Assembly (NCBI GenBank): GCA_016786765.1
Contig: JAEUUZ010000004.1
Coordinates: 21,300 to 85,299, forward strand
Direction of reading: 5' to 3'
Length of the DNA: 64,000 nt
DNA from: Chitinophagales bacterium
Lineage (GTDB): Bacteria; Bacteroidota; Bacteroidia; Chitinophagales; LD1
Shown here: positions 19,268 through 53,624 of the stretch, piece after piece
How positions within the stretch are numbered: position 1 is the first letter of the stretch
Layout: every line of letters begins with the position of its first letter
Notes under the pieces: generated by a model
What the model saw: only the letters and a program-made list of their open reading frames with translations
Databases searched by the model: none
What the model was told of the DNA's origin: nothing
Program-made: the position numbers and the translations under genes

Positions 19268-20358
19268 CGTACTTTTCGTTTTTTATTTCTTTCAAAATCT
19301 TCAAATAAATAATCGCCCAACCCTTTTAAAGAAGTATAAAATGCTTTGCCAGCATTGGCCTGTGTAAATTCTTCAACAAAGCTCTGCAGATATGGGTCTG
19401 ATGCAATCATAAAGGTAGTAATGGGGATTTTTACTCTTCTGGCCGCAGCTGCTAGTCTAACGCATTTGTTGACTATTTTTCTATCAAGGCCAAAGCTGTT
19501 TTTATAATAGTGTCCATTTTCTTTAATACAGCTTGGCTTGCCATCCGTAATCATAAAAATTTGCTTATTGGCATTTTTCTTTTTGCGCAAAATATCCATA
19601 GCCAATTCCAAACCGGCCACTGTGTTGGTATGGTAAGGCCCCACTTGTAGATAGGGTAAATCCTTTAATTCAATTTGCCATGCATCATCGCCAAAAACAA
19701 TAATATCGAGTGTGTCTTTGGGATATTTCTTGCGGATGAGTTCGGCCAATGCCATAGCCACATTTTTGGCAGGGGTGATACGATCTTCCCCATATAAAAT
19801 CATGGAGTGCGAAATATCAATCATGAGCACGGTTGAAGTCTGCGTTTTGTGTTCTTTCTCGCGCACCATTAAATCGTCCTCATTCATTATAAATTCACCA
19901 ATGCCATGGTTAATTTGAGCATTTCGAAAACTTTCCAACATAGCGATTTGCTCTAAAGAATCTCCAAACTGATAATTGCGTATGTCGCTGCTCATTTCAT
20001 CACCGGTTCCAGTATGTCGTGTTTTATGATTTCCCGAGCTACCTCTCTTAAGCTTACCAAAAATTCTTTCGAGGGAACTTTCCCGAATGGCCTTTTCGGT
20101 TTTTGACGTCATGTTAAACGCCTCTGAACCTGGTTGATCTTCTTTAATGTAACCCCGTTCACGCAAATCGTTAATAAAGTCGCCAATACCATAATCGCGA
20201 GTAGTAATTTTATATTCTTTATCTAATTCCGTTAACCAACTTAACGATTCTGCTACATCGCCTGAAGTATAAGTAAGCATCTGCTTGAAAATGTCAAATA
20301 GCCTATCAAAAGGATTTTGCGATTGGGAACTAAATTTTGAGAAACGGTAGCCGAGCAT
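19264..20358 (-). CDS. VWA-domain protein partner of the AAA+ ATPase
   Basis: MIDAS motif VLMIDISHSM (DxSxS), with later ITDGKP and TTFMIA strands. The stop overlaps the ATPase start (ATGA). Confidence 0.75.
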   Translation of the reverse strand: MLGYRFSKFSSQSQNPFDRLFDIFKQMLTYTSGDVAESLSWLTELDKEYKITTRDYGIGDFINDLRERGYIKEDQPGSEAFNMTSKTEKAIRESSLERIFGKLKRGSSGNHKTRHTGTGDEMSSDIRNYQFGDSLEQIAMLESFRNAQINHGIGEFIMNEDDLMVREKEHKTQTSTVLMIDISHSMILYGEDRITPAKNVAMALAELIRKKYPKDTLDIIVFGDDAWQIELKDLPYLQVGPYHTNTVAGLELAMDILRKKKNANKQIFMITDGKPSCIKENGHYYKNSFGLDRKIVNKCVRLAAAARRVKIPITTFMIASDPYLQSFVEEFTQANAGKAFYTSLKGLGDYLFEDFERNKKRKVR

Positions 20359-20649: not shown

Positions 20650-21615
20650 TTATTTTTTTTGATTTTGGGCTTCAATCCACTTGTAGGTTTGCGTCATACC
20701 ATCTGCTAGCATTGACGATGGAGCCCATTTCAGCTTTTCTTTAATTAAACGGTTATCGGAGTTTCTTCCACGAACACCCATTGGACCGGGGATATTATTA
20801 AGTGTTAATGCCTTGCCTGAAATAGAAATAACGAGTTCAGCGAGTTCATTAATAGAAACCATTTCATCAGACCCTATATTAACAGGTCCAGCAAAATCAT
20901 TATCCATAAGTCGTTGTATTCCTTCTAAACACTCATCAATATAAAGGAATGAGCGAGTTTGAAGTCCATCCCCCCAAATCTCAATAGAAGAACCGGAGTT
21001 GGCTTGCGCTACCTTCCTGCATATAGCAGCCGGTGCTTTTTCTTTCCCGCCTGTCCACGTCCCCTCTGGGCCAAAAACATTATGAAAACGAGCTATTCTA
21101 ACATTTATGCCAAAGTTCTTTGCATAACTGAGGTAAAGTCGTTCACTGAATAGTTTTTCCCAACCATATTCGCTATCCGGATTAGCAGGATAAGCCGAAG
21201 ACTCTTCGCAGTTAGGGTTTGCAGGATCAAGCTGGTTATGCTCAGGATATATACATGCCGAAGACGAATAAAATATTTTACCAACCCCAAATTGTTTCAC
21301 TAACGATAAAATATTGAGATTGATTAATGCAGAATTGGTCATTAAATCGGCATCGTTATCGCCTGTAAAGATATATCCTGCACCGCCCATATCGGCCGCT
21401 AATTGATAAATGCAATCAAATTTTTCGTTGAGCACATCACTACAAAAAAGTGGATTGCGCAAATCTCCAATTACAAATTCGTTGGCAACAGAGTTACAAT
21501 ATTCCGGAAATTTCAAATCTACACCTCGAACCCAATATCCTTCTTGCTTTAGTCTTTTCACGAGATGTGCACCAATAAACCCTCCTGCTCCACATACCAA
21601 TGCCCTTTTGCTCAT
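20650..21615 (-). CDS. GDP-mannose 3,5-epimerase-like NAD-dependent epimerase (extended SDR)
   Basis: GAGGFIGAHL Rossmann motif. Long near-collinear matches to the plant GME sequence as I remember it: AADMGG.G(F/Y)I, SSACIYPE, RFHN.(F/Y)GP.GTW.GG.EKAPAA.CRK, WGDGLQTRSF..IDEC.EG, VNIGSDEMVS.NE.AE, PGP.GVRGRNSDN.LIKEKL.WAP. Confidence 0.7.
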   Translation of the reverse strand: MSKRALVCGAGGFIGAHLVKRLKQEGYWVRGVDLKFPEYCNSVANEFVIGDLRNPLFCSDVLNEKFDCIYQLAADMGGAGYIFTGDNDADLMTNSALINLNILSLVKQFGVGKIFYSSSACIYPEHNQLDPANPNCEESSAYPANPDSEYGWEKLFSERLYLSYAKNFGINVRIARFHNVFGPEGTWTGGKEKAPAAICRKVAQANSGSSIEIWGDGLQTRSFLYIDECLEGIQRLMDNDFAGPVNIGSDEMVSINELAELVISISGKALTLNNIPGPMGVRGRNSDNRLIKEKLKWAPSSMLADGMTQTYKWIEAQNQKK

Positions 21616-21776: not shown

Positions 21777-22688
21777 ATGAGAAAGGTTTTTCACGACCCT
21801 GCTTTACAGAAACAATTTGACAAGGATGGTTATGTTAGCCTGCCTTTTATTTCAAAAGAGAAAGTAGAATTATTAAAACAGGCTTTCTTCGACACCTTAC
21901 CGAAAAGTGGTGGTCAGTTGGGTGCTGACGATGTTAAAAACGGTCATACTATCACCTACGATTTTACTTTTATCGATAAAAATCCGGAATACAAAAAGTT
22001 AGTATTCGACATTATTGTAAAACAATTTGAACAAGAATACAACAACGTATTAGCTGATTACAAACCAATTATTGCCAATTTTATTCGCAAAAAAACAGAC
22101 GGTGGCGAAGTGCCATTGCATCAAAATTGGGCATTTGTGGAAGAAACGAAATATACCTCCGTTTCTATTTGGTGTCCATTGGTAGACAGTACCATTGAAA
22201 ACGGCACACTCCAAGTTGTACCCGGAAGTCATAAGCGGTTTGGACTACAACGTGGCCCCAAAGTGCCTTGGGAGTTGGAAGGCATAAAAAATGAAATCAT
22301 TAACGATTACCTCATTCCTCTTGAAACAAAGGCTGGCGATTGTGTTATTTTAGACGACAGCATTATTCATTATACTGCCATTAACAAAACCCCTGGATTA
22401 CGATTAACAATTCAATTGATTTTGATTCCGGCAGATACATACTCGTTACATTATGATTTAAAATCTTCTAACGATGGCGAGGTAAGTGTTTTGGAAGTAG
22501 ATCATGACTTTTACATGAAGTTCAATCCTTGGATGCAACCGAGCAATGTAAAAACAATTCGAAAAGAGAAGTTTGAATTTAAACCCATGTCAACTTCTCA
22601 ATTTGAAGCAAGATTAAAAGAACCAAAAATTGACGAAACCACAGGCCTGTTCGCCAAAATCAAAAAACTATTTTTGACGGAAGCTTAA
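21777..22688 (+). CDS. PhyH-family Fe(II)/2OG dioxygenase paralog 1 (variant HxN metal motif; MinD-like C-terminal tail)
   Basis: LHQNWAF (H115-Q-N117), NGTLQVVPGSH, SIIHYTAINK...LRLT. C-terminus ...EPKIDETTGLFAKIKKLFLTEA. Confidence 0.75.
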   Translation: MRKVFHDPALQKQFDKDGYVSLPFISKEKVELLKQAFFDTLPKSGGQLGADDVKNGHTITYDFTFIDKNPEYKKLVFDIIVKQFEQEYNNVLADYKPIIANFIRKKTDGGEVPLHQNWAFVEETKYTSVSIWCPLVDSTIENGTLQVVPGSHKRFGLQRGPKVPWELEGIKNEIINDYLIPLETKAGDCVILDDSIIHYTAINKTPGLRLTIQLILIPADTYSLHYDLKSSNDGEVSVLEVDHDFYMKFNPWMQPSNVKTIRKEKFEFKPMSTSQFEARLKEPKIDETTGLFAKIKKLFLTEA

Positions 22689-22706
22689 TCTATAAATCAC
22701 AACACT

Positions 22707-23675
22707 ATGTTTCAGTTTCCAGCACAAATGATGCGTGTTTTTAAAGATGAGCAAATGCAAGCGGCTTTCGAGCGCGATGGCTTTGTGATTGTTGATTTTT
22801 ATACCAATGATGAAGTTGTGCAACTGGAGAAGTTGTATTCCGATTTACACCCTGTGGAAGAAAAAGGCTTTTACCCCAGTACTTTTTCGAAAGACAAAAG
22901 ATATAGACAAACAGCAGATGAAGAAGTAAGACGTGTGGGTTCAAGATGGATGAATGAAAACTTACAGGATTTCAAAACGATGTGTGGCAGTTTTATTGTA
23001 AAGTATCCCGGGGCCGATAGTACGATGTGTGTTCACCAAGATATGACCTTAGTGGATGAAACTAAATTTACCGGAATCAATATTTGGTGTCCGTTAATTG
23101 ACTTAACTGATGAGAATGGGGTTATACAAGTACTTAAGGGAAGCCATAGAATTATTCCAACATATAGAGGAGCCACTGTACCTTGTTTATATGGAGGTAT
23201 GAAGGACAATGACATTATACCCTATTTATCGCCTGTATATTTGAAAGCAGGGCAGGCTGTAATTTTCGACCAAAGTATTATCCACTATTCAGCAGCTAAT
23301 CTTTCCGATAAAATTAGAATTACAACAAATATTTATTTCACACATAAAGATGCTGATTTTAGAATTGCGTACTACAACAAAGATGCGCATGGCGATAAAG
23401 TAGAACTGTTTGAAGAAGATGATTCTTTCATGACCAACTTCGAACAGTTTGGCGACAATATTTTCGACAAACCAAAAATTGGGAAAAGCATAGGATTATT
23501 CGATTACAATTTCCCGAAGTTAGATGCAGCTTGGCTTGCAAGTCTTTATCCTGAAAAAGCAAAAGAAATAAAAGCAAAACAAGAGGCATTAACTACAGTA
23601 TTCAATCCACAACCAGAACAGAAATCAGAAAAAAAATCATTTTTCAAACGACTTTTCGAAACAATAGCGAACTAA
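22707..23675 (+). CDS. PhyH-family Fe(II)/2OG dioxygenase paralog 2 (C-terminal amphipathic tail)
   Basis: VHQDMTLVDE, NIWCPLIDLTDENGVIQVLKGSH, SIIHYSAANLSDKIRIT. C-terminus PQPEQKSEKKSFFKRLFETIAN. The start may instead be the Met pair 7-8 codons in. Confidence 0.78.
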   Translation: MFQFPAQMMRVFKDEQMQAAFERDGFVIVDFYTNDEVVQLEKLYSDLHPVEEKGFYPSTFSKDKRYRQTADEEVRRVGSRWMNENLQDFKTMCGSFIVKYPGADSTMCVHQDMTLVDETKFTGINIWCPLIDLTDENGVIQVLKGSHRIIPTYRGATVPCLYGGMKDNDIIPYLSPVYLKAGQAVIFDQSIIHYSAANLSDKIRITTNIYFTHKDADFRIAYYNKDAHGDKVELFEEDDSFMTNFEQFGDNIFDKPKIGKSIGLFDYNFPKLDAAWLASLYPEKAKEIKAKQEALTTVFNPQPEQKSEKKSFFKRLFETIAN

Positions 23676-24658
23676 TGGTAGAACCAATTTTTCAAGACCC
23701 TGAACTGCAAACGCAATTCGAATCGCAAGGCTATGTGAAAATTCCATTTTTAACGCAAGACGAAGTTACACACCTTGTAAATTTGTTTTGGGAATTACAT
23801 CCATCCATTGACACCAAAGGGTTTCAATCGAGCAGTTACTCAAATGATTATTCCTATAAAAAAAAGGCTAGCGATTTAGTTACAGCAGTTTTCAAAACGC
23901 ATTACGAAAAGATTTTTAAAAATTATAGAGCATTTGGTTCAGCATACTTATACAAACAACCCGACACCTATTCAGAGTTACCTGTGCATCAAGACTGGAC
24001 AATTGTAGACGAAGAACAATATGTTGCTTTAAATATATGGGTACCACTTATTGATGTAACTTCTTTTAATGGAGCATTACATGTAATGCCGGGTAGTCAT
24101 TATGGTGTTTTGAAACCCTTGCGCTGTCCTACGTTGCCAATGTTTTTTGACGGTTATGAACAACTGATGATTGCCAATTCCATTCCAATGGAAGTGAAAG
24201 CAGGTGAGGCTGTTGTATTGAATCAAAGCATTGTGCATTATTCTCCGCCAAACAAAAGTGATAAAATCAGAATTGCCATTACTTCAGGGGTAATGAGTGC
24301 TGCACCTAAAATGAATTTTCACTATTGTCCCGATCGTTCGAAAAACGAAGTCGAGGTATTTGAAATGGAAGATGACTTTCTAATCAGCTTTGAAAATTTT
24401 TACGAAGCGATTTTAAAACGTCCGTTGATGGGAAAAAGTTTAGGAATGAAACCTTACAACATACCACTCCTTAACGAATCGGAACTGCATGAGATGCTTC
24501 TAAAAATGAAAGAACGTGCTGGACTACCTCCTGTTTTAGTGGAGTCAACACCGATTAAAAACAATATTGTAGTTGAAGAAAAAATAAACTTGGAACCTAC
24601 TCCTAAAGTCGAGCCAACGTTAATTCAACGCATTGCTTCATTTTTCCAAACACATTAA
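23675..24658 (+). CDS. PhyH-family Fe(II)/2OG dioxygenase paralog 3 (C-terminal amphipathic tail)
   Basis: VHQDWTIVDE, NIWVPLIDVTSFNGALHVMPGSH, SIVHYSPPNKSDKIRIA. C-terminus EPTPKVEPTLIQRIASFFQTH. 1-nt TAATG overlap with paralog 2. Confidence 0.78.
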   Translation: MVEPIFQDPELQTQFESQGYVKIPFLTQDEVTHLVNLFWELHPSIDTKGFQSSSYSNDYSYKKKASDLVTAVFKTHYEKIFKNYRAFGSAYLYKQPDTYSELPVHQDWTIVDEEQYVALNIWVPLIDVTSFNGALHVMPGSHYGVLKPLRCPTLPMFFDGYEQLMIANSIPMEVKAGEAVVLNQSIVHYSPPNKSDKIRIAITSGVMSAAPKMNFHYCPDRSKNEVEVFEMEDDFLISFENFYEAILKRPLMGKSLGMKPYNIPLLNESELHEMLLKMKERAGLPPVLVESTPIKNNIVVEEKINLEPTPKVEPTLIQRIASFFQTH

Positions 24659-24666
24659 GCACAGAT

Positions 24667-25566
24667 ATGATTCCTGTTTTAAAAGATTCCGAACTAGAAG
24701 CACTGTTGACCGGAGAAGGATTTGTGGTATTACCATTTTTGAATGAAACAGAAGTGGCATATCTGGTAGACTTATATAACACGCATCATACCGATTCGAA
24801 AGAAGGCTTGTATGCTACAGCGCATTCATCGGATCGCGATTTCAAAATGAAGTTGAATGTTGAAATTCTAAAACAATTTGAACGAGCTATCGAACACTAT
24901 TTTTTGAACTGCCGTCCCCTGGGTGGATCATACATAACAAAATATAAAGGTCAAAACGGATCTTTACTTCCACATCAAGATTGGTCGATAGTAGATGAAG
25001 AACAATTCCGCTCTTTTAATATTTGGATTCCATTGGTTGATACTACAGAAGAGAATGGAGCTATTTGTGTTTTACCGCACAGCCACACACTGTTAAAGAG
25101 TTTTAGAGGAGTGAATGTGCCTGATCCTTTTTATAAAATCAGTGATTATACTTGGAAGTATCACCAAACGTTGAACATGAAGGCAGGTGAAGCATTGCTC
25201 TACGACCATAGGTTGCTGCATGCATCGGGCATTAATCAAACGGAACAGCCCCGATTAGCTGTAGTGTTTGGCATTATTCCGGAAAAGGCTGAAATGCGTT
25301 ATCACTTCATAGAGAACGGTGTAATTTCAGAATACGAGAGCAACTTAGATTTCTTCTTCAACTTCGATATTCTTAAAGGACCACAAGGATTAAAAAAATT
25401 AAGAGACTTAGAATACACAGTGAATCCTTTAACAGAAGAAGACTTCGATTATCTTTATTTGGGTATTGAAAAGAAAAAACCAACGCCTATTGAAGCACCT
25501 GTAGCACAACCCCTCACCCCTTCAACAGAAGGCCTTTGGGGGAAGTTAAAACGACTATTTTCGTAA
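24667..25566 (+). CDS. PhyH-family Fe(II)/2OG dioxygenase paralog 4 (C-terminal amphipathic tail)
   Basis: PHQDWSIVDE, NIWIPLVDTTEENGAICVLPHSH, RLLHASGINQTEQPRLA. C-terminus PTPIEAPVAQPLTPSTEGLWGKLKRLFS. Confidence 0.78.
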   Translation: MIPVLKDSELEALLTGEGFVVLPFLNETEVAYLVDLYNTHHTDSKEGLYATAHSSDRDFKMKLNVEILKQFERAIEHYFLNCRPLGGSYITKYKGQNGSLLPHQDWSIVDEEQFRSFNIWIPLVDTTEENGAICVLPHSHTLLKSFRGVNVPDPFYKISDYTWKYHQTLNMKAGEALLYDHRLLHASGINQTEQPRLAVVFGIIPEKAEMRYHFIENGVISEYESNLDFFFNFDILKGPQGLKKLRDLEYTVNPLTEEDFDYLYLGIEKKKPTPIEAPVAQPLTPSTEGLWGKLKRLFS

Positions 25567-25592
25567 TTCGACTTTTCTTTTGATATTGCTTT

Positions 25593-26576
25593 ATGATATA
25601 TATACTGATTACAGTTTTTTTTATTGGTGTTGCCGTTGTTACATTCCTATTGTTGCAGAAAACAAGAAATACAAACACCGTAAATACTGAAAAAACAGAG
25701 CTTGTTAACACTACATCTCCAGAAAAAGTTAAAGCTTTTTACAATCAATACAATGATAAATTTTTAGAAGTCTATGGCGATGTTATTCAGGCATTCCGAA
25801 CAACCGATGTAAGCAAACTTTTGGATTATGAGATTGCCAGCATGGAATTGAAATCCGGCATGAATATTTGTGATGCTGGATGTGGTGTTTGTGGCCCTGC
25901 GATATACTTTGCTGAACAATGTGATGTAACAGTGAGTGCTGTAACTATCTCTGAAGTTCAACTGAAAGAAGCTAACAAGAGAATTTTGTTGAAGGGGCTA
26001 AACAACAAAGTAAATGTACACTTGGGTGATTATCATCAACTCCCATCACTCTTCGCAAAAGAAACTTTTGATGTAGTGTACTTTTTGGAATCATTCGGAC
26101 ATTCCAATAATCACAGTAAAGCCATTGATGCGGCTTGGGATGTTTTAAAACCGGGAGGAACGCTGTACATTAAAGATTTGTTTCGGAAAATTGCAGTGAT
26201 CGAAGAGCACCAGCAAAAAATCGATTACGAGATTGGCAGAATTAACGAAGCCTATAAATACAATGTTGCCGATTTATACAAAGTGTTAGATGCTATGCGC
26301 AGAAAGGGTTTTGCTATATGCTTCGTTAAAACGATTGATTTAAAATTGGAAGACTTTGAAAACTTGACCATCTCCAATGATTTTCAAGAATTGACCGGTA
26401 TTGCGAAAATTGAAAATTGGGAAGACTACATTTTCCCTGTTGATTTTTTTGAGATTAAATGCTACAAACCTCAACATGAATTGCAATATGGATTAGATAA
26501 ATATTTCCTCCAAAATATGTATTGGATGCAGGTTCACAATAAACAACAAAACGAATTAGACTACGGAAAACTTTAA
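25593..26576 (+). CDS. Membrane-anchored class I SAM-dependent methyltransferase
   Basis: N-terminal TM helix MIYILITVFFIGVAVVTFLLL followed by KTR, so the catalytic domain is predicted cytoplasmic. Motif I ICDAGCGVCGPAIYFA, then ...LKPGGTLYIKD. Motif I resembles the sterol/tocopherol/CMAS-type MT pattern LD.GCG.GGPA. Confidence 0.75.
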   Translation: MIYILITVFFIGVAVVTFLLLQKTRNTNTVNTEKTELVNTTSPEKVKAFYNQYNDKFLEVYGDVIQAFRTTDVSKLLDYEIASMELKSGMNICDAGCGVCGPAIYFAEQCDVTVSAVTISEVQLKEANKRILLKGLNNKVNVHLGDYHQLPSLFAKETFDVVYFLESFGHSNNHSKAIDAAWDVLKPGGTLYIKDLFRKIAVIEEHQQKIDYEIGRINEAYKYNVADLYKVLDAMRRKGFAICFVKTIDLKLEDFENLTISNDFQELTGIAKIENWEDYIFPVDFFEIKCYKPQHELQYGLDKYFLQNMYWMQVHNKQQNELDYGKL

Positions 26577-26580
26577 CGCA

Positions 26581-27861
26581 TTACTGTTGCTCTACTTTCC
26601 ATGCTAATCGTTTAAGGAGTGGAGAGGGTAATCCACCCCAAACAGCTTTTGCAATCCATTCATCTTTTACTATTTCGAATGTATAAAACTGAAACGGTAT
26701 TGGCACTTCCTTTCCATCGCGCCCAATAACCAAGGTATGCTTGTATGTTCCGCTATTGAAAAAATAGGGCTCGTAAAAACTTGTATACACATAAGTACCC
26801 GATGGCTGAGGTTGATGTACTTCACCTTCGCGAAATGCAGGTGCATCGGTTGTAATCCATGTCCCGAATAAATCCAATATTTTCGAACCTAATTGCAGAT
26901 AACCTTCATCACATTTCTTTTCAATTACATACTCGATTTCGATAGCATCACTAATGTAAATGGCCGCATCATGAGCTTTGTTACTTGCTTTCACGCGAAC
27001 AGAAATTAATCGAAAGAAATCATTCTGCGGAGTAAGACTATTGTTTAAATCAAACTGAATTCTACCGGCTTCGTCTTTACCAGTAAATGACGACAATTCT
27101 ATTGCAGCATTTTGTTTGTTCAGCGCTATAAGATAATCAGCAAAAACTAATTTAGGATTGCCCTGAGCAGCAATCTTTCCTTCGCGTATTAATACACAGC
27201 GAGAACAGAACTCGATTACTTCAGAAGGATTATGACTTACAATAACAACTGTTTTCCCACTTCGAGCCAATGCAGAAATTTTCTGCTTTGCTTTTTCATG
27301 AAAGGCAGCATCTCCTACAGCCAAAACTTCATCTAGCAATAAAATATCGGCATCTAAGTGACTGAATACAGAAAAAGCCAAACGCAAATACATTCCGTTT
27401 GAATAGTTTTTTACCGGCTCATCTATAAACTCGCCAATGCCACTAAAATCAAGAATTTCAGCAAACACAGCATCAATTTTCTGTTTAGACATCCCTAATA
27501 AGCTGCCATTTAAATACACATTCTCTTTACCCGTTAAATCGGGGTGAAAACCTGCGCCAATACCAAGAATCGAACAAATCGTTCCATCTATTGCAATGGA
27601 GCCTGAGGTAGGTGGAATAATATTGCTTAATATCTGCAATAAAGTGCTTTTCCCTGAACCGTTCCGGCCAATTATCCCCAACACTTCCCCTTTCTGTATT
27701 TCGAGCGAAATATCTGTCAAAACATGATGCATATCAACTTTCCGATAACCCAATACATCCTTAAAAGCAAGTAGAATAGAGTTTTGAATGCCTTCACTTT
27801 TTAAATGCCGAAGTTCATAAGATTTGCTTAAGTGCTCAATTTTAATTGCCGGTTTTGTCAC
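26581..27861 (-). CDS. wzt: Polysaccharide ABC exporter ATP-binding protein, Wzt/TagH-type, with ~170-aa C-terminal extension
   Basis: GRNGSGKST Walker A, YSNGMYLRLAFSV signature, LLLDEVLAVGD Walker B, SH switch. Residues ~250-426 form an extra beta-rich domain where Wzt carbohydrate-binding domains sit. Confidence 0.8.
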   Translation of the reverse strand: MTKPAIKIEHLSKSYELRHLKSEGIQNSILLAFKDVLGYRKVDMHHVLTDISLEIQKGEVLGIIGRNGSGKSTLLQILSNIIPPTSGSIAIDGTICSILGIGAGFHPDLTGKENVYLNGSLLGMSKQKIDAVFAEILDFSGIGEFIDEPVKNYSNGMYLRLAFSVFSHLDADILLLDEVLAVGDAAFHEKAKQKISALARSGKTVVIVSHNPSEVIEFCSRCVLIREGKIAAQGNPKLVFADYLIALNKQNAAIELSSFTGKDEAGRIQFDLNNSLTPQNDFFRLISVRVKASNKAHDAAIYISDAIEIEYVIEKKCDEGYLQLGSKILDLFGTWITTDAPAFREGEVHQPQPSGTYVYTSFYEPYFFNSGTYKHTLVIGRDGKEVPIPFQFYTFEIVKDEWIAKAVWGGLPSPLLKRLAWKVEQQ

Positions 27862-27876
27862 ACTACACTATTTTCT

Positions 27877-28692
27877 TTAAATAAGTTCTGCCACATATCG
27901 TTCTACCTTTTTGAAATACATCAATCCTGCAACAAATAATAAAAGCATAAACAAAAAGATATAAATATATTGAATAGAAGGACAAGCTTCACCTAACAAC
28001 ACATAGCGGTAACCATCTAAAACACCTGCCATAGGATTTAAATAGGTTAACCAAAAATAACGTTCCGGAATAATTGAACCCGGATAAAAAACCGGTGTAA
28101 GCCAGATACTGAAATTAATCATGTAAGGCACAATGTGATGCAGATCACGATTTCGAATGGTAAGTGCATTTATCCATATAGTAATACATAACCCAACAAG
28201 AATATTCATAACAATTACTACCGGCAAAAACACAATTGACCAAGATAATGGATGGGCGAAAACGAACATTAGCAAAAGCATTACAGCTAACGATATTAGG
28301 AATTCGATAAGCCCTACTACCACTTTAGACAAGGGCAAAATAAATTTGGGGAAATAGATTTTTTGAATCAGGGTTTGATTTTGAATGAGAGATGTGCTTG
28401 CTCCATTTAAAATAAACGAAAAATAATTCCATCCGAGCATACCTGAAAAAGCGAAGAGTGGATAAGGAGAATGCATCCCCTTAATTTGGATAAGTTTATC
28501 GAAAAACAAAGTAAATACTAACATTCCGGCCAATGGTTGCAAAGCCGACCACAGAATACCAAATTTAGCTTGTGCGTATTTTACTTTCAATTCACGTGAT
28601 GCCAACACAATTACTAAATACCGATAGCTCCATACTTTCTTTAAATAAGTGAAAAGCGAATCTTCTTTAGCTTGAATGTATTGAATTGCCAT
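27877..28692 (-). CDS. wzm: ABC-2 type polysaccharide exporter permease (Wzm-type)
   Basis: 271 aa with 6 predicted TM helices. N-terminal ...YRYLVIVLASRELKVKYAQAKFGILWSALQP is the ABC-2 family hallmark. Lies directly upstream of wzt. Confidence 0.8.
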   Translation of the reverse strand: MAIQYIQAKEDSLFTYLKKVWSYRYLVIVLASRELKVKYAQAKFGILWSALQPLAGMLVFTLFFDKLIQIKGMHSPYPLFAFSGMLGWNYFSFILNGASTSLIQNQTLIQKIYFPKFILPLSKVVVGLIEFLISLAVMLLLMFVFAHPLSWSIVFLPVVIVMNILVGLCITIWINALTIRNRDLHHIVPYMINFSIWLTPVFYPGSIIPERYFWLTYLNPMAGVLDGYRYVLLGEACPSIQYIYIFLFMLLLFVAGLMYFKKVERYVAELI

Positions 28693-28714
28693 GAATCTAT
28701 TATTAGCGTTGCAT

Positions 28715-29560
28715 TTAATGACTGATGGCTTCCAAAACCTCTTCTATGGTTACAGGATTATTGACATATGATTCTAAGACTTCATATCCTTTATCAGTAG
28801 GCGCTTTCACCATTGAATCTTCGCGAAGACGTTCATACCGGTAGGTGAAATCATCGTCCGGATGATGAACTTCCAACGCTAATCCCGGTTCGGGTTGATG
28901 ATATATTTGGAACGATGCCTCTTGAGGTAAAATAGCCGATTGGATAACTATGCGTTCCATATCACTTTGGTTAGCGGGAGAGCCGTGAATAGTATTCAAA
29001 AAGAAAAGCAATGCTTCGCCTGCTTTCATAGAAAAAACCGTTGAGCGCATTTTCAACTCTTCCAAAATTGGTTTGTAATTCGGGAACAAATAGCCTGCTC
29101 CGCGCACGGGGCGATTAATATTATGGCTTTTTTTCAATATCCACATTGCACCATTGTGCGCATCCACATCTTGGAGCGGTACCCATATATTAAACGAAGT
29201 ATATTTTGATTCATCAACAATACTCCAATCTTGATGTACAGGAAATGTTGTTTCCTCACCCTTGAGCTTTACGATGAACTGTTGATTTACGGCTCTATAG
29301 TTTTTGAAATTTCGCTCACAAGCTGCAGATAAGATACGTTCTAGGTTTTCTTTTATCGTTAACTTATAATTCAAATCAGGCGACCAAATCGTCATGTGGA
29401 TTCCATCGTACAACGCAGGGGGATTTTGACCTCCATGCAAATCTTTATAAAATGTTTGTACTTCATTCAACTCTTCAGGGGTTAAAAATGGAATGCGCAC
29501 CACTCCTTCTTGCTGCATTTGGGCTTCGAGTGCAGAATCTTTCAGTATGCTGCTTTTCAT
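28715..29560 (-). CDS. PhyH-family Fe(II)/2OG dioxygenase paralog 5 (no basic C-terminal tail)
   Basis: VHQDWSIVDE, NIWVPLQDVDAHNGAMWILKKSH, NTIHGSPANQSDMERIV. Ends ...VTIEEVLEAISH. Confidence 0.75.
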   Translation of the reverse strand: MKSSILKDSALEAQMQQEGVVRIPFLTPEELNEVQTFYKDLHGGQNPPALYDGIHMTIWSPDLNYKLTIKENLERILSAACERNFKNYRAVNQQFIVKLKGEETTFPVHQDWSIVDESKYTSFNIWVPLQDVDAHNGAMWILKKSHNINRPVRGAGYLFPNYKPILEELKMRSTVFSMKAGEALLFFLNTIHGSPANQSDMERIVIQSAILPQEASFQIYHQPEPGLALEVHHPDDDFTYRYERLREDSMVKAPTDKGYEVLESYVNNPVTIEEVLEAISH

Positions 29561-29601
29561 TTAATTTCGAATTTTATACGATCAATTTATTCGGCATCGC
29601 G

Positions 29602-30639
29602 TTATGCCGCAAATATTTTTCTCAATTTATCCAAAAACCCAACCGCTCTTTCTGGCTGAGAGGCTTCAACAGATGGAATTTCCATAGCAACATTATGTGC
29701 ACTCAAGGGTTCTACAATCATATTACAGTCAGTATGCCCCTGTTCGTTTAAATAGTTAACCGGTTTAATTCCATGCTCAGCACACAATGCAGTAAACTCA
29801 GCTTCCGTTATTTTCGGCCATTCATCTTCAACTAATGCAACAGTTTCACCTGTTTGCGGACGAGCATGACAATCAACCAAAAAATTTGGATTCGTGAGCA
29901 AGTAATCGTCATCATGTTGTATTACTTCAATTTTTGCATTCGGTATTGCCGGATCCTTCCAACAAGTTTGCAATTTTGCTTCAGTTGGAAATAAACCAGA
30001 TATAACCACTACGCGCTCTTTACCGGAAAGATTTTGCATAGAGTTATGTACAATACGATTGTCGAAAACCAATATATCTCCTGCTTTCATAAACAATGGC
30101 TGTAAATATCTACGAACAGCGAAGTGAATATCATCGTATGGCGCAGGGAATGAAATACTACGATATGGCGAAAACATTTTATGACTTCCGGGCATCACAC
30201 ACATGGCTCCATTATCTGCCGTAATATCCTCTAACGGAATCCACAAACTTAAAGGAGAATACTTAAATTCATCCAAGCCTGTTGTATCTTGATGTACATA
30301 AAACTCACTTCGTGGTCCTGATGCTTTTACTATGTATGAATTCAACATCATCTTGTAATCCCCTAACCATTGATCGAGATATGGTTTTAGAATTGCCCCT
30401 ATTTCGTCATGCATTTTTCTTCGGTACACAAGATCTTGCGAATAGACACTATAAAACATACCCCCTTCACCATTTTCAAAATGATGTGTGGCGGCAAAAA
30501 GTGATTGCAATGCTTCTAATGATGATTCACTTAAACGACCATGAACCGAAAATCCATCTGTATCAATTCGTTCGCGGAGCTCTGAATCGGTAATATAGTG
30601 GTGTGCAACGGGTTGCCATGCTGTTTCTCTACTTATCAT
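29602..30639 (-). CDS. PhyH-family Fe(II)/2OG dioxygenase paralog 6 (C-terminal amphipathic tail)
   Basis: VHQDTTGLDE, SLWIPLEDITADNGAMCVMPGSH, RIVHNSMQNLSGKERVV. C-terminus PSVEASQPERAVGFLDKLRKIFAA. Confidence 0.75.
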   Translation of the reverse strand: MISRETAWQPVAHHYITDSELRERIDTDGFSVHGRLSESSLEALQSLFAATHHFENGEGGMFYSVYSQDLVYRRKMHDEIGAILKPYLDQWLGDYKMMLNSYIVKASGPRSEFYVHQDTTGLDEFKYSPLSLWIPLEDITADNGAMCVMPGSHKMFSPYRSISFPAPYDDIHFAVRRYLQPLFMKAGDILVFDNRIVHNSMQNLSGKERVVVISGLFPTEAKLQTCWKDPAIPNAKIEVIQHDDDYLLTNPNFLVDCHARPQTGETVALVEDEWPKITEAEFTALCAEHGIKPVNYLNEQGHTDCNMIVEPLSAHNVAMEIPSVEASQPERAVGFLDKLRKIFAA

Positions 30640-30711: not shown

Positions 30712-31707
30712 GTGAAATCCTTCCTGAGAAAAATCAGAATTAGCGACCCTTGGAACTATAAAATTCCATTTCTAATTGCTATTCCATACTTATATGCTTT
30801 CCATAGTTCTTTTTATTATTCTTTTGGTGCACAAAATTTCATTTTTAAATTCTTCTTATCTTATATAACAATCATTGGTATAGCAGGATTTGCCTACACG
30901 TTAAACGACTTTACCGATAGAAAAAAGGACGAAGCGGCCGGAAAAGAAAACCTACATATCCATAAACCCATTTGGTTTTCGATGGGTATTCTTTTACTAT
31001 TCCTGAGTATTGCGTTAGCGCCTTGGTGTTACTTCCCAAAAACAGTTTACACATTATCGCTACTCAGTATTGAACTATTGCTTTTTGTGTTGTATTCCGT
31101 CCCGCCATTCCGCTTCAAAGAAAGAGGATTTTTAGGCGTGATTACTGATTCCCTTTATGCGCATGCCATTCCGGCTCTGCTGGCGCTAACAGCTTTCGAT
31201 CAAAATGGAGAACTGCCCTTCAACACGATTAGGGGATTATCGATAACTCTTCTTCTTTGGCAATTATTTCTAGGTATAAGAAACATACTCTTTCATCAAA
31301 TTGCAGACTCTAAGAACGATATCAAAAGCGGAATTAAAACATTTGTAACAAGCACTTCAATTCCTAAAACAGAACTATTGCTGAAGAAACTTTTCATACC
31401 GCTTGAGGTGATTAGTTTTTCCCTTTTTTGCCTTATCCTATCATTAACTTATTTTTTGATGTCGCTCACTCTTTTAGCCATCTATATACTATATCTTTTC
31501 TACCAAAGAAAGGGGTACCACTCTAGCACTCATCCGGTATACCGCAAGTTCTGTTACTTTTTTCTAGACGATTTCTACATCGAATGGCTGCCGATTTTTT
31601 TTCTCTTGTGGTTATTAACCATTGACATACGCTATATTGTACCGCTAGTACTCCACGTATTACTTTTCAGAAATTGCTTCAAACGTTTGTTAAAACTAAA
31701 CTTTTGA
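30712..31707 (+). CDS. UbiA-superfamily polytopic membrane transferase (divergent)
   Basis: About 8-9 TM helices. First Asp-rich motif NDFTDRKKD (NDxxDxxxD) after TM2. Second motif ADSKNDIKSGIKTF (DxxxD...G..T). GTG start. Confidence 0.65.
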   Translation: MKSFLRKIRISDPWNYKIPFLIAIPYLYAFHSSFYYSFGAQNFIFKFFLSYITIIGIAGFAYTLNDFTDRKKDEAAGKENLHIHKPIWFSMGILLLFLSIALAPWCYFPKTVYTLSLLSIELLLFVLYSVPPFRFKERGFLGVITDSLYAHAIPALLALTAFDQNGELPFNTIRGLSITLLLWQLFLGIRNILFHQIADSKNDIKSGIKTFVTSTSIPKTELLLKKLFIPLEVISFSLFCLILSLTYFLMSLTLLAIYILYLFYQRKGYHSSTHPVYRKFCYFFLDDFYIEWLPIFFLLWLLTIDIRYIVPLVLHVLLFRNCFKRLLKLNF

Positions 31708-31714
31708 TATTCGA

Positions 31715-32845
31715 ATGCAGACAAACAAAGACCATATTGCCGTTTTATCGCTGAATGCCAATAAGTATTCAGAAACCTTCATCCACAATCAAATCAAGTA
31801 TTTACCTGCTCATGTGCATTGCCTATATGATGGCGTACTACCTAAATATGGACCAAATGAAACTTGCTTTGTAGAAAACGAAAACACGCTTAAAACAATT
31901 TTACTTCGTCAGTGTAAAGGCAGATCAAAAACAGAGCAACATCAATATAATATTGAACAGTATCTTATCAAGAACAAGATCAAGGCAGTAGTTGCAAACT
32001 ATGCAATTACCGCTTTCCCAATTATGGATATTTGTCAACGCAATAACATTCCGCTTATTGTTCACTTTCACGGTTGGACAGCATATCGAAAAAGTCTTCT
32101 TGTAAAACATAAAGAAGACTACATGCGCATGTTCACTATTGCCTCAGCGGTGATTGCTGTCTCCAATGACATGTATGACCAACTTCAAAAATTGGGTTGT
32201 CCGAAGGAAAAGTTATCGCTTATCTATTATGGATTTAATAACGATTTGTTTGTTTATAGCGATCACTCTGAAAACAATTTAAATTTCCTATCGGTTGGAA
32301 GATTTTGCGACACTAAAAATCCACATCTTACCATCTTAGCTTTTCATCAAGTATTACAATCATTACCTGCTGCGAAACTTAATATGATTGGGGGCGATGA
32401 AACCTTATTGAATAGCTGCATGCAATTGGTGAAGAGTTTAAACATTGAACAACACGTTAACTTTCTTGGCATAAAAACACCCGAAGAAGTTGCAACAGAA
32501 ATGCATAAAGCCATCGCCTTTGTTCAACATTCAGCCACTACAATGGAAGGCGAAAAAGAAGGCACCCCTGTATCTATCATAGAAGCTATGGCCTCTGGTC
32601 TGCCCGTTGTTGCAACACGTCATGCCGGCATTCCTGATGTTATTTTAGAAAATGAATCAGGGTTATTGTGCAATGAATTTGATATAAATGAAATGGCACG
32701 CCTGATGTTGAATGTCGCTACGGATAAAGCCCTCAACCAACGCATTGGAAAAAATGCAAGCGGTAGAGTGCATACCCATTTCACAATGCAACAATATATC
32801 GACAAACTTTGGGCTGTGATTAACGATAAGATTCAAAAGCAATAA
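31715..32845 (+). CDS. GT4-family (GT-B) glycosyltransferase
   Basis: C-terminal half ...[40 protein letters not shown] matches the E-x7-E retaining-GT4 signature. Confidence 0.8.
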   Translation: [376 protein letters not shown]

Positions 32846-32847
32846 TC

Positions 32848-34743
32848 ATGTGCGGCATTTTAGGAACCATACCGGCAACACCACAAGGCTACTTTAGCGA
32901 AGCATTGTCGTTATTGAAACACAGAGGTCCGGATGGAAGTTCTACTTGGCACAATCAAGCACAAAGCATTTCTTTAGGTCATAATCGGTTAACCATTATC
33001 GATAAAACGGAGTCAGGCATTCAGCCCATGCACCGTGAACATTTGCATATTGTATACAACGGTGAAATTTTCAACTTTGTTGAATTGCGTGATGAACTGA
33101 TGACCCTTGGATTTACGTTCACATCAACATCCGACACAGAAGTTATCCTTAACGCTTACAAAGCATGGAAAGAAGAATGCTTTGCCCGTTTCAACGGTAT
33201 GTGGGCATTAGCGATATGGAATGATATAGACAATACGTTATTGCTATCTCGGGATCGATACGGTGAAAAGCCTTTGTATTATATAAGCCACAATAACGGC
33301 TTTGCCTTTGCATCGGAAATGAAAGCACTCATTCCGTTTTTGGAAAACGTTGAAGTTCATGCTAACTTCAAAAGCTTTTGCAATAATCCATTTGCCTACG
33401 AAGCCACCGAAGATTGTCTCATCAAAGACATCAAACGATTCCCTGCATCACATTGGGGAAAACATAAAGATGGGGAATTAGTATTACATCAATACTGGAA
33501 TACGAAAGAACATTTGCAACTTATTTCATCCAATTATAAAAAACAAACAGAGGAATTTCGTTCTCTATTTTTAGATGCTATAAAAATTAGAATGCGCTCA
33601 GATGTTCCAATTGGAACAGCATTGAGTGGAGGCATTGATTCCTCGTGTGTAGCAGTAGCCATGCATGCCATTGCAGGAAAAGTAGAATCTAACTTTAATC
33701 ACAATTGGCAAAATGTGTTCTCTGCTGTTTATCCAAATTCCGATGTAGACGAATCGGAATATATCAAAAGTGTTACTGCTCAATTAAACATAAAAGCATT
33801 TGAAGTAGAGATTGATGCCACAAAAGCATTAGCACAATTCGAAGAAGACTATTATAAATTTGAAGAATTATATATCACTTCACCTTTCCCAATGCTACAA
33901 ACGTATGCTGCGATGCGCAAACAAGGCGTAGTGGTAACCTTAGACGGACATGGTGCCGATGAATTATTTTGCGGCTACGATACATTTATGTTGGCTGCTT
34001 TGAAAGATTGCGGATTAAATCCTTTCACTATAAAGTCGATCCTAAATACATATAATGCATTAGGTGGAAACAAATCACAATTTCAGAAAAAACAAAAAAC
34101 GTTCAGCGAGTATACAAAGTGGAATACCGGCAGCGAAAGTATAACTGCATTGCTTCCCATTATTAGCACAGAAATCAAAAAAGCTCTTGCTACTCCGAAA
34201 ATCCAGAAAGAAAAAATGGATACGTTAACTGAAAATCTGTATAAACTATTCCATACAGATAATCTTCCAACATTACTTCGTAACTACGATCATTATTCAA
34301 TGGCAAATGGAGTGGAAATCCGCTCACCTTTTTTAGACCACCGATTAGTGAGTTACACTTTTTCTTTGCCTTGGCAATCGAAGCTGAGCAAAGGGTTGAC
34401 CAAAACTATTTTACGCGATGCCATGCAGCCCTACTTACCGAAAGCCATTTATAATCGAAGATCGAAAATGGGATTCCAAACGCCTATTGTAGATTGGCTA
34501 AAAGGTCCTTGGAAGCATTATTTTCTTGAATTAATACACACCGACCGATTTAATCAATCCACTTTCATAGAAGCGAATACAGTTAGACAAAACATTGAAA
34601 ATTGCATCAACAACAAAGACGTAAGTTACAGAGAAGGGGAATTGGCCTATACATCTATCGCCCCATTTTTATGGGAACTTTTTGTTTTTGAAAAATTCAA
34701 GCAAATTCACCTCCAATTCAAAAACACTAAAACAGCATTTTGA
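32848..34743 (+). CDS. Asparagine synthase-type glutamine amidotransferase (AsnB family, polysaccharide-locus type)
   Basis: MCGILG, with the Ntn nucleophile Cys2 retained. HRGPDG, DTEV, SGGIDSS PP-loop. 631 aa. Confidence 0.85.
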   Translation: MCGILGTIPATPQGYFSEALSLLKHRGPDGSSTWHNQAQSISLGHNRLTIIDKTESGIQPMHREHLHIVYNGEIFNFVELRDELMTLGFTFTSTSDTEVILNAYKAWKEECFARFNGMWALAIWNDIDNTLLLSRDRYGEKPLYYISHNNGFAFASEMKALIPFLENVEVHANFKSFCNNPFAYEATEDCLIKDIKRFPASHWGKHKDGELVLHQYWNTKEHLQLISSNYKKQTEEFRSLFLDAIKIRMRSDVPIGTALSGGIDSSCVAVAMHAIAGKVESNFNHNWQNVFSAVYPNSDVDESEYIKSVTAQLNIKAFEVEIDATKALAQFEEDYYKFEELYITSPFPMLQTYAAMRKQGVVVTLDGHGADELFCGYDTFMLAALKDCGLNPFTIKSILNTYNALGGNKSQFQKKQKTFSEYTKWNTGSESITALLPIISTEIKKALATPKIQKEKMDTLTENLYKLFHTDNLPTLLRNYDHYSMANGVEIRSPFLDHRLVSYTFSLPWQSKLSKGLTKTILRDAMQPYLPKAIYNRRSKMGFQTPIVDWLKGPWKHYFLELIHTDRFNQSTFIEANTVRQNIENCINNKDVSYREGELAYTSIAPFLWELFVFEKFKQIHLQFKNTKTAF

Positions 34744-37380: not shown

Positions 37381-38220
37381 TTAAAACTGAACCACTTTAA
37401 TATTATCCAATAAAACCGTTACAGTACTTCCATCTGCCACTTTCGATACTTTAAAATACAATCGATATGAATCTCCTGCTGTTGCCCCAACTTCATTACC
37501 AAAATTCAGATACGTTTTATTCCAGGTGCTTTTCGGATTAAATGTAATCTTATATAAATCGGAAACTGCTCCATTCTTGTAAGACAACATTCCACATTCA
37601 AAATAGCCATCGCATTTATAATTCAGCTCCACATAAACATTCTGCCCGGCACCGGTGATTGGAAAACTGGCGGTGTGATATGCAAAAGCTGCAGTATCAT
37701 TGGGGCCCAAATAAATCTTTGCACTTCGTGTACCTTCAAATACATTAGAGTCGGTTCGATCTGTATTCAGTGTTAAACCGGAAAAGCTATTGGTAGCATC
37801 AAAATCTTCAATTAATGCAAACTTAGCAGCCGGCATATACTGAAAAACTGGAACATGTCGATAGGTATTTCCAGATTGCGCATTACTGATGCTAAACGTG
37901 TCTACTGCATAGAAAGGATATTCAACTCGAGTGTTAGCAATACCGTTATCTTTTATTCCTGCACCCAATTCAACACGTATATCGCCACTTTGCAATACGG
38001 GAATTTTGGCCGGAATTTGAAATGTTCCAATACTTTTTCCATTAACGCTTACCCATACATCGGTAATTTTATGCGATGCAGTACCCTTGCCAAATGCAGA
38101 TGCAAAACCTACTGAGTCAATGACTATATAAACAGGAATTCCCCCGTTTGGCATTTTGTTGCAACTCCAAAATGAAGTAACCACAATCAAGAAGGATAGT
38201 AAAAAAGCTATTCTTTTCAT
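37381..38220 (-). CDS. Hypothetical lipoprotein, co-transcribed with the WbaP-type gene
   Basis: Signal sequence plus Cys (VVTSFWSC). All-beta composition. Ends 3 nt before the WbaP start. No family recognised. Confidence 0.5.
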   Translation of the reverse strand: MKRIAFLLSFLIVVTSFWSCNKMPNGGIPVYIVIDSVGFASAFGKGTASHKITDVWVSVNGKSIGTFQIPAKIPVLQSGDIRVELGAGIKDNGIANTRVEYPFYAVDTFSISNAQSGNTYRHVPVFQYMPAAKFALIEDFDATNSFSGLTLNTDRTDSNVFEGTRSAKIYLGPNDTAAFAYHTASFPITGAGQNVYVELNYKCDGYFECGMLSYKNGAVSDLYKITFNPKSTWNKTYLNFGNEVGATAGDSYRLYFKVSKVADGSTVTVLLDNIKVVQF

Positions 38221-39893: not shown

Positions 39894-39926
39894 CCTATTC
39901 GTTTATAACGTCTATTAAAAGTTCGA

Positions 39927-53540: not shown

Positions 53541-53624
53541 GTTTAAGAATATTTTTGCCAAATATAGACAAATGAGCGCAATTTTAGGTGGGAAGCTTGA
53601 AAAAGTTTATTTGTCCACATTCAT

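Follow-up and report, generated by a model that had tools for sequence, protein, structure and literature searches.

Six divergent PhyH-type oxygenase genes beside a Wzm/Wzt-type exporter: a rearranged member of a widespread Bacteroidota module

The window analysed here is a 64,000-nucleotide stretch from a Chitinophagales bacterium (assembly GCA_016786765.1, contig JAEUUZ010000004.1, positions 21,300 to 85,299), and it carries six genes for Fe(II)/2-oxoglutarate (2OG) oxygenases of the phytanoyl-CoA dioxygenase (PhyH) type, packed closely around the genes of a predicted Wzm/Wzt-type ABC exporter. An earlier interpretation made without any database search (hereafter the sequence-only reading) had picked out these six open reading frames (ORFs), and their coordinates and strands are exactly as it gave them. 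Four genes, P1 (21777–22688), P2 (22707–23675), P3 (23675–24658) and P4 (24667–25566), lie on the forward strand in an operon that leads into a gene for an S-adenosylmethionine-dependent methyltransferase (MT; 25593–26576, forward strand; Methyltransf_11, 4e-16) with an N-terminal transmembrane (TM) anchor, a single helix at residues 1–24. The other two, P6 (29602–30639) and P5 (28715–29560), are read from the reverse strand (30639–28715) and lead into wzm (27877–28692) and wzt (26581–27861), both on the same strand, the two operons being divergent. The packing is tight, within the range from a 1-nt overlap to a 41-nt gap proposed before: P1 and P2 are 18 nt apart, P2 and P3 overlap by 1 nt at 23675, and the remaining gaps are 8 nt (P3–P4), 26 nt (P4–MT), 15 nt (Wzt–Wzm), 22 nt (Wzm–P5) and 41 nt (P5–P6).

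All six proteins belong to the PhyH family, each matching Pfam PF05721 far above its cut-off of 22 bits (65–77 bits, E = 1e-17 to 2e-21; 1.4e-20 for P1, 7e-18 for P2, 3e-20 for P3, 2.4e-21 for P4, 1.1e-17 for P5 and 8.7e-21 for P6). They align with one another at 23–31 % identity over about 280 columns and are invariant at His115, Gln116, His198 and Arg209 (P1 numbering), the 2OG-binding Arg standing 11 residues past the distal His in all six, a spacing consistent with that first described. The facial triad, which had been read as HxD...H throughout, is present in P2 to P6 as HQD...H, with the motif HQDM in P2 and HQDT in P6, and these five paralogues are predicted to be catalytic; it is not intact in P1, where the motif is HQN...H. 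In NCBIfam, P5 has a weak match to TIGR04324, the “sporadic carbohydrate cluster 2OG-Fe(II) oxygenase” (8e-9), and P6 a match to TIGR04436 (8e-11) that stays under the cut-off.

The window locus has counterparts in many genomes, being a rearranged form of a conserved module that is widespread. A genome scan of one genome per GTDB species, with an alignment of P4 orthologues as the query, gave 141 relatives, and 80 of the 141 loci were analysed by comparing naive longest-ORF calls with the window proteins. These 80 loci contain 409 PhyH ORFs; counted by domains, 62 loci have at least four PhyH domains and 55 at least six, with a mode and median of six and a maximum of 14. About 33 loci come from Chitinophagales, nine from Flavobacteriales, three from Saprospiraceae, one from Mucilaginibacter and one from Verrucomicrobia, the rest being unclassified Bacteroidota. 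Average-linkage clustering resolves the PhyH proteins into the orthogroups P1, PL, P2 (n = 54, with HQDM in all), P3 (n = 57), P4, P5 and P6 (n = 26), together with many small groups; the gene order that recurs is Wzm-P1-PL-P2-P3-P4-MT-(UbiA)-Wzt, and beyond it there are often more PhyH genes on the opposite strand, P5 and P6 included. In most related loci P1 has Wzm as its immediate upstream neighbour, and MT, present in 41 of the 80, usually comes right after P4. Partner genes were counted in the 38 battery loci with full 10-kb flanks, where Wzm is found within 10 kb in 26, MT in 21, Wzt in 18 and UbiA in 15. Two closely related loci, L005 and L006, share with the window a rearranged variant of this order in which PL is lacking and wzm-wzt is part of the P6-P5 operon.

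The six genes are old, diverged paralogues, as had been supposed: each falls into its own orthogroup, and identity is 42–62 % within groups against 24–34 % between them (PL being split into its two halves for this comparison), so that the paralogues are ancient. Compared with L006, whose genes are 82–86 % identical, the ratio of nonsynonymous to synonymous substitution rates (dN/dS) is 0.023 for P1 and 0.025–0.061 for the other five, with 0.025 for P2, at synonymous distances near saturation; by this measure the six genes are functional and under purifying selection.

P1 departs from its paralogues in a consistent way. The iron-ligand Asp is replaced by Asn (HQN or HEN) in 53 of 53 P1 orthologues, while both His residues and the 2OG-binding Arg are kept. 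Of the 409 PhyH ORFs, 349 have Asp as the acid ligand and 56 have Asn, the latter being all 53 members of P1 and three proteins from other small groups; 405 retain the first His, and all 409 retain the distal His and, at the same spacing of 11 residues, the Arg. A decaying pseudogene was rejected, since P1 is under strong purifying selection, with the lowest dN/dS of the six, and, with 62 % within-group identity, is among the best-conserved orthogroups. A halogenase is not supported either, as there is only a partial 21-bit match to TIGR01762 and the motif is HxN rather than HxA/G. No characterised Fe/2OG enzyme in which a His-x-Asn...His site is conserved is known to us. Having Asn where the Asp ligand would stand, P1 is most likely an auxiliary or non-canonical subunit.

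Fusion of neighbouring paralogues is frequent in this subfamily. When 1.84 billion representative proteins (clusters at 50 % identity) were searched with a profile built from the six window paralogues, 9785 relatives came up at E ≤ 1e-3, of which 1972 reach E ≤ 1e-30, and a large share of the top 150 carry two or three PhyH domains. When the domains of such proteins are assigned with orthogroup hidden Markov models, natural fusions of operon neighbours emerge: P1-PLn-PLc, P1-PLc, PLc-P2, P2-P3, P3-P4 (six cases) and P6-P5; every adjacent gene pair of the operon has a fused form elsewhere. PL, which has no counterpart in the window, is itself a protein of about 635 residues with two complete PhyH domains, each with the motif HQDW. 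Tandem proteins of two or three PhyH domains and up to about 1,470 residues are common (L013:6149-8065, L036:6122-8068, L076:5198-7189 and 55 others; proteins P0134-P0282). Since neighbouring paralogues are naturally fused elsewhere, the window proteins may act as associated pairs or arrays, probably as hetero-oligomers of paralogues, and the frequency of fusion points to a physically linked oxygenase array. Together with the loss of the Asp ligand in P1, this makes a reading of the locus as six distinct catalytic steps probably too simple.

The C-terminal ends of these proteins suggest in addition that they associate with the membrane. In five of the six window PhyH proteins the C-terminus is formed by a linker rich in Pro, Glu and Lys and, after it, a short motif of the kind GLWGKLKRLFS, a tail that resembles the membrane-targeting helix of MinD. 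Over the last 20 residues of PL, P2, P3 and P4, the median maximal hydrophobic moment is 0.60–0.63 and the net charge +2 to +3, against 0.44–0.46 and 0 to +1 for other proteins of the same loci and 0.39 for internal PhyH segments. The tails of P1 reach a moment of only 0.53 at a net charge of +2, and a cationic amphipathic tail is not clear in P5 and P6, the window P5 being without a cationic C-terminal helix. In an AlphaFold2 (AF2) model of P4, a terminal helix (residues 290–298) follows a low-confidence linker.

That model (predicted local distance difference test score 92), made for P4 and compared with the PDB by Foldseek, has 392 matches at E ≤ 1e-3 and predicts a double-stranded β-helix fold like that of solved PhyH-type enzymes. 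The leading matches are SnoN (9e-13), AndA, MysH, HygX, EvdO2 and EctD, followed by EvdMO1, SnoK, SptF and the TlxIJ heterodimer (7vbq), with TM-scores of about 0.45–0.55 for the best; several of these (SnoN, SnoK, HygX, EvdO2 and EvdMO1) act on sugars. A sequence profile searched against the PDB gives MysH first (2.7e-9), then SnoN and SnoK (3e-6). A search of 5.8 billion proteins with P4 gives 292 relatives at E ≤ 1e-5, whose only names are “phytanoyl-CoA dioxygenase family” and “hypothetical”; the nearest is from a Chitinophagales metagenome-assembled genome, and a look-up of cluster members gave no cultured source and no informative name. By sequence comparison the six PhyH proteins are orthologues of no characterised enzyme.

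The exporter is, by sequence, of the Wzm/Wzt type, as had been claimed. An ABC2_membrane gene (Wzm, 6e-12) adjoins an ABC_tran gene (Wzt) whose ATPase is nearest to Wzt of Aquifex aeolicus (5.6e-53), the next-best solved relatives of its nucleotide-binding domain (NBD) being TarH/TagH and mycobacterial Wzt; its NCBIfam matches to TagH (2.5e-54) and galactan Wzt (2e-49) are both under the equivalog cut-offs. The C-terminal domain of the window Wzt, about 175 residues long, has no Pfam match by itself, Wzt_C included; nine of 20 Wzt orthologues match Wzt_C (best 1.4e-6), and a profile of the 20 C-terminal domains matches the carbohydrate-binding domain (CBD) of A. aeolicus Wzt (6o14/8dky, 1e-5). 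Conservation is unevenly spread over the module: for the 23 Wzt-carrying loci compared in pairs, the median identity is 61 % for P1, 63 % for P2, 55 % for P3, 54 % for PLc and 55 % for MT, against 41 % for Wzm, 42 % for the Wzt NBD and 20 % for the Wzt C-terminal domain. Loci also differ in their glycosyltransferases, whereas the battery is constant. Because the exporter is less conserved than the battery and MT, and the glycosyltransferases vary, the battery and MT appear to act on a chemically conserved moiety, with the recognition domain of the exporter diversifying.

In one alternative the paralogues would work at an earlier stage and on soluble compounds (nucleotide sugars, N-acyl or amino-acid substituents of amino sugars, or the small precursor of a cap), and would furnish one unusual, conserved building block or a chain-terminating cap for later transfer to the glycan. 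The related loci are rich in genes for the tailoring of nucleotide sugars, namely DegT, GFO/IDH/MocA, GNAT, KAS III, carbamoyltransferase and PP-loop amidotransferase-like genes, and some PhyH relatives (MysH, EctD) act on small polar molecules. The battery and MT lie, moreover, between wzm and wzt, which is where the terminator genes lie in systems of the Escherichia coli O8/O9a type, and Wzt has a putative CBD-type domain. However, a cap that is made by the battery and recognised by this domain is hard to reconcile with a C-terminal domain that is the least conserved part of the module (20 %) beside a battery that is the most conserved; at least six oxidations on one small precursor would be unusual, and the cationic amphipathic C-terminal helices and the TM-anchored MT argue for a substrate bound to the membrane. 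We regard this explanation as unlikely.

The nature of a membrane-bound target is approached through MT and the UbiA-superfamily protein. The best PDB matches of MT are 3bus (7e-21), which we take to be the rebeccamycin sugar O-methyltransferase RebM, and the D-glucose O-methyltransferase 6uv6 (5e-12), matches to cyclopropane or mycolic-acid lipid methyltransferases being 1e-6 or weaker; in sequence, MT is closest to sugar O-methyltransferases. The putative UbiA-superfamily intramembrane transferase (30712–31707, forward strand; UbiA, 9e-14, 51.7 bits against a cut-off of 34.2; at least six TM segments) lies 7 nt before the gene of a GT4 glycosyltransferase (31715–32845, forward strand; Glycos_transf_1, 2.6e-30). 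P4 is the paralogue most tightly linked to MT and UbiA, and P4-MT-UbiA is the tightest recurring trio, occurring also without the rest of the battery, beside carbamoyltransferase, AsnB and radical SAM genes. In 19 UbiA orthologues both Asp-rich motifs are invariant (N65-D69-D73 and D199-D203). A single-sequence PDB search with UbiA gave no match, and NCBIfam gives weak generic prenyltransferase matches that reach no equivalog cut-off; a profile is nearest to the prenyltransferases AfUbiA (4tq3, 1.4e-5) and DGGGP synthase (6m31, 1.5e-4) and has no PDB match to decaprenyl-phosphate phosphoribosyltransferase, an assignment for the window protein that is thus not supported.

These observations lend weight to an alternative in which the battery acts on an isoprenoid or other lipid: UbiA would prenylate a glycolipid, the PhyH enzymes would hydroxylate successive positions along the chain, and Wzm/Wzt would export a polyhydroxylated prenyl glycolipid. 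Besides the tight P4-MT-UbiA linkage, the intact Asp-rich motifs and the profile nearest to true prenyltransferases, UbiA and GT4, the latter as the C-terminal half, are fused in at least four related loci into one protein of 743–778 residues (L055:16699-18987, L069:15048-17279, L083:16798-19134, L084:16867-19161). The substrate from which the PhyH family takes its name is an isoprenoid acyl-CoA, the terpenoid-acting AndA, SptF and TlxJ are among the Foldseek matches, the tails would target the enzymes to the membrane, and related loci include genes of the Asp/Arg-hydroxylase family (that of LpxO) and B12 radical SAM genes. Both the multitude of regiospecific paralogues and the constancy of the battery amid varying glycosyltransferases would follow from a chain with repeating units. 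Against this stand the much closer likeness of MT to sugar than to lipid methyltransferases (7e-21 and 5e-12 against 1e-6 at best), the presence of UbiA within 10 kb in only 15 of the 38 full-flank battery loci, and the putative CBD-type domain of Wzt, which points to a glycan ligand; nor is any such lipid known. Although we place it second in our ranking, we still consider it improbable on balance. A pathway of the quinone or meroterpenoid kind, suggested by the combination of UbiA, MT and oxygenases, was likewise down-weighted, as MT is nearest to sugar O-methyltransferases and the neighbours are glycan genes.

The reading that we rank first, and to which we assign a probability of roughly one half, is that the oxygenases, associated with the membrane and physically linked to one another, oxidise some conserved portion of a glycoconjugate carried on a lipid, and do so ahead of its export by the ABC transporter. 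The PhyH oxygenases would form a peripheral-membrane set at the cytoplasmic face of the inner membrane, probably as hetero-oligomers, and would perform several regiospecific C–H oxidations on the conserved part of a polyprenol-linked glycoconjugate, most likely on its sugar residues, either by hydroxylation or, in the manner of SnoN, SnoK and EvdO, by radical epimerisation or cyclisation. The TM-anchored, RebM-like O-methyltransferase would then methylate the oxidised product, and the Wzm/Wzt exporter, with the putative carbohydrate-binding domain of Wzt, would move it across the membrane. We infer the membrane association, the hetero-oligomers, the timing before export and the sugar target from the features set out above. 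Signs of a sugar target are the sugar-acting enzymes among the structural matches of P4, the likeness of MT to sugar O-methyltransferases, the weak TIGR04324 and TIGR04436 matches of P5 and P6, and the PhyH genes annotated in Xanthomonas wzm/wzt cassettes. The sequence-only reading, in which the six enzymes perform several distinct oxidative tailoring steps on a lipid-linked glycan or glycolipid before export, is in part supported by this analysis; it was reasonable and too simple. What has been added to it is the widespread module, the conserved His-x-Asn subunit, the frequent fusions and the putatively membrane-targeting, cationic amphipathic helices in which most members end.

Several observations weigh against a sugar-directed, export-coupled battery. 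A scheme directed purely at sugars leaves UbiA, tightly linked as it is, without a clear role; a constant battery amid differing glycosyltransferases is accounted for by a conserved moiety outside the repeat no less well than by sugars of the backbone; and the terpenoid-acting AndA, SptF and TlxJ are structural neighbours too, at TM-scores of only 0.43–0.53. The window locus has a single GT4 besides its initiating transferase, which is thin for a polymer. No member of the group has a known substrate or product, all 80 related loci come from metagenome-assembled genomes, and the set was chosen through P4 orthologues, so that its frequencies are biased towards P4 contexts. Finally, in 12 of the 38 full-flank battery loci Wzm is missing from the 10 kb on either side, and some of these Wzm-less batteries sit amid housekeeping genes with no Wzm/Wzt near. 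The latter would be expected if the clustering were incidental and the PhyH genes served a catabolic or secondary-metabolite pathway, of the aminoglycoside-like kind or one making ribosomally synthesised and post-translationally modified peptides (RiPPs), that merely lies beside an O-antigen-type exporter; the B12 radical SAM, SPASM radical SAM and WelO5-like genes of related loci are also typical of natural-product clusters. Yet the Wzm-P1 adjacency and the succession of MT and Wzt right after P4 recur across orders, P5 and P6 share an operon with wzm-wzt in the window (gaps of 22 and 41 nt), and no genes for precursor peptides, non-ribosomal peptide synthetases or polyketide synthases were seen in the window locus, all of which makes incidental clustering very improbable. 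As to a RiPP or proteusin-like cluster in particular (Fe/2OG oxygenases, B12 radical SAM enzyme and methyltransferase), it was rejected because the window holds no precursor, radical SAM or LanM-type gene between 20 and 38 kb.

The sugar-directed reading can be carried one step further. The fused, tail-anchored PhyH domains might constitute a multi-oxygenase array at the inner membrane, beside the Wzm/Wzt channel, that edits a simple lipid-linked glycan after its polymerisation, by serial radical C–H hydroxylation or epimerisation while the chain is on its way to the exporter; we put this forward as a doubtful proposal. If true, the array would be a bacterial counterpart of the epimerisation of alginate and heparan, driven by Fe/2OG chemistry, and P1 with its His-x-Asn site a new kind of non-canonical subunit.

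The surroundings of the battery are those of an envelope-glycan locus, and it is from these neighbour genes that the region from 20.6 to 38.2 kb, between housekeeping genes (alaS, gatB) and genes for cargo of the type IX secretion system (T9SS), is so designated; a glycan-type neighbourhood, with an epimerase, GT4, an AsnB-type amidotransferase and Bac_transf, is present. A predicted NAD-dependent sugar epimerase/dehydratase (20650–21615, reverse strand; Pfam Epimerase, 4e-42) is divergent from the P1 operon and has orthologues in seven related loci. Beyond UbiA and GT4 lie an AsnB-type glutamine amidotransferase (32848–34743, forward strand; Asn_synthase, 2e-68, with GATase_7), which comes after UbiA in 12 related loci, and a TM-anchored SGNH/GDSL-like protein (34740–35975, forward strand; one TM helix and a weak match to Lipase_GDSL_2, 5e-4) with homologues in nine loci. 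They are followed on the reverse strand by a putative initiating polyprenyl-phosphate sugar-phosphate transferase (35977–37377; Bac_transf, 5e-62, with CoA_binding_3; five TM segments) and, as the last gene of the convergent operon, by a predicted lipoprotein (37381–38220; signal peptide followed by Cys, no Pfam match), whose membership of the glycan locus is uncertain. No WaaL-like gene and no gene for an outer-membrane polysaccharide export (OPX) protein was seen in the window. Directly upstream of the glycan locus is a pair of genes for an AAA_5 ATPase and a VWA-domain protein (17780–20358), and just past it a DUF1501/DUF1800 pair (38310–41564), whose DUF1501 protein has a T9SS C-terminal sorting domain; the latter pair also adjoins PhyH batteries in L043 and L056. 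T9SS-related genes flank the region at 2670–7013, 7872–8888 and 49899–53561, their products being a 1447-residue PKD-repeat protein with a CHU_C signal, a PorP/SprF protein and a 1220-residue SprB-repeat protein with a Por_Secre_tail.

Other gene families recur around the module in related genomes, where oxidative and radical enzymes of further kinds are unusually abundant. B12-binding radical SAM genes are found in 21 related loci, SPASM radical SAM genes in nine and Asp/Arg β-hydroxylase-family genes (Asp_Arg_Hydrox) in 12, and carbamoyltransferase, CN-hydrolase and PP-loop amidotransferase-like genes are also recurrent. WelO5-family genes (PF22814) occur in 12 related loci, for instance L064:18463-19335, L067:13038-13910 and L042:12801-13679; nine of the 16 proteins carry His-Cys-Gly, as in halogenases, the others HCE or HCD, and halogenated products are a possibility in some variants of the module. 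In several loci the module adjoins a protein of about 750–940 residues with an N-terminal PMT_2 (GT-C-like) region and C-terminal TPR repeats (L013:1508-4324, L024:1445-4237, L041:1070-3817, L078:3559-5808; a homologue in L060 is truncated at the end of the locus). Some related loci hold a DprE1-like protein (FAD_binding_4 and ALO; L033:12275-13663, reverse strand) or a DprE2-like short-chain dehydrogenase/reductase (L011:4306-5169, forward strand), and an 8–11-TM protein without a Pfam match, a GT-C candidate, lies at L011:2578-4311 (reverse strand). Together with UbiA, these proteins recall the route from polyprenyl-phosphate-ribose to polyprenyl-phosphate-arabinose; neither DprE-like protein nor the GT-C candidate was seen in the window locus.

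With about 2,000 subfamily protein clusters at 50 % identity, carried by uncultured freshwater and wastewater Bacteroidota, the module points to a widespread, heavily oxidised envelope glycoconjugate that has not yet been isolated. To our knowledge, sugar-acting Fe/2OG oxygenases come almost only from actinomycete antibiotic pathways, and for envelope glycolipids we know only of single Fe/2OG enzymes such as LpxO. In line with the sequence-only reading, a search of 7.7 million PubMed Central (PMC) papers and bioRxiv, a library of incomplete coverage, turned up no account of a PhyH battery serving a Wzm/Wzt pathway. The module offers new enzymology in its conserved His-x-Asn variant, its natural two- and three-domain PhyH fusions and its putatively membrane-targeted 2OG oxygenases; were the product identified, it could represent a new chemical class of bacterial surface glycans and provide regiospecific C–H oxidation catalysts for carbohydrates or lipids.

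Among known systems, PhyH genes already appear singly in annotated lipopolysaccharide cassettes with wzm/wzt in Xanthomonas. These, like the TIGR04324 and TIGR04436 families, are PhyH-type or 2OG oxygenase genes inside surface-carbohydrate clusters; they differ from the present locus in that they come in one or two copies and are themselves uncharacterised, and the window proteins, at 25–42 bits against cut-offs of 150–200, are not members of the two TIGR families. The E. coli O8/O9a systems (Wzm, Wzt with a CBD, and WbdD) resemble the window in a Wzm/Wzt exporter with a membrane-associated methyltransferase encoded next to it, and probably in a C-terminal CBD-type domain of Wzt, although the window's own Wzt C-terminus, taken singly, does not reach Wzt_C. 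They contain no oxygenases, and WbdD is their terminator, a role that for MT would be hypothetical.

LpxO offers a precedent from lipopolysaccharide synthesis: this 2OG dioxygenase works on an envelope glycolipid from the cytoplasmic side of the inner membrane, and an ABC transporter flips the product afterwards (PMC4402001). LpxO, and KdoO with it, resemble what is proposed for the window, namely Fe/2OG modification of an envelope glycolipid prior to flipping; LpxO differs in belonging to the Asp/Asn β-hydroxylase family, in being a single enzyme and in acting on lipid A, which is not Wzm/Wzt cargo. For the pairing of PhyH domains a parallel is the solved PhyH-fold heterodimer TlxI/TlxJ (7vbq), one subunit of which is a catalytically incompetent auxiliary (PMC12141560). 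TlxI/TlxJ and TlxA/TlxC recall the loss of the Asp ligand in P1 and the common tandem fusions described above. They differ in that they serve a fungal meroterpenoid pathway and in that TlxI is without the 2OG-binding Arg, whereas P1 keeps the Arg and both His residues and has Asn for Asp; the Tlx heteromers are established, while a heteromer here is suggested by the change in P1, the tandem PL and the fusions.

Further precedents are EvdO1, EvdO2, EvdMO1, AviO, HygX and SnoK/SnoN, which, like the proteins studied here, are PhyH-type Fe/2OG enzymes and which oxidise sugars of an assembled oligosaccharide or glycoside. Enzymes of this orthosomycin type are among the best structural matches of P4 (E = 1e-10 to 9e-13), yet at 17–20 % identity and TM-scores of 0.44–0.54 they are not its orthologues. 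They belong to actinomycete secondary metabolism and are soluble, without a membrane-targeting tail and without a link to Wzm/Wzt. The clusters for orthosomycins, hygromycin B and nogalamycin each hold several such paralogues, as the Bacteroidota module does, but two or three compared with 6–14 here.

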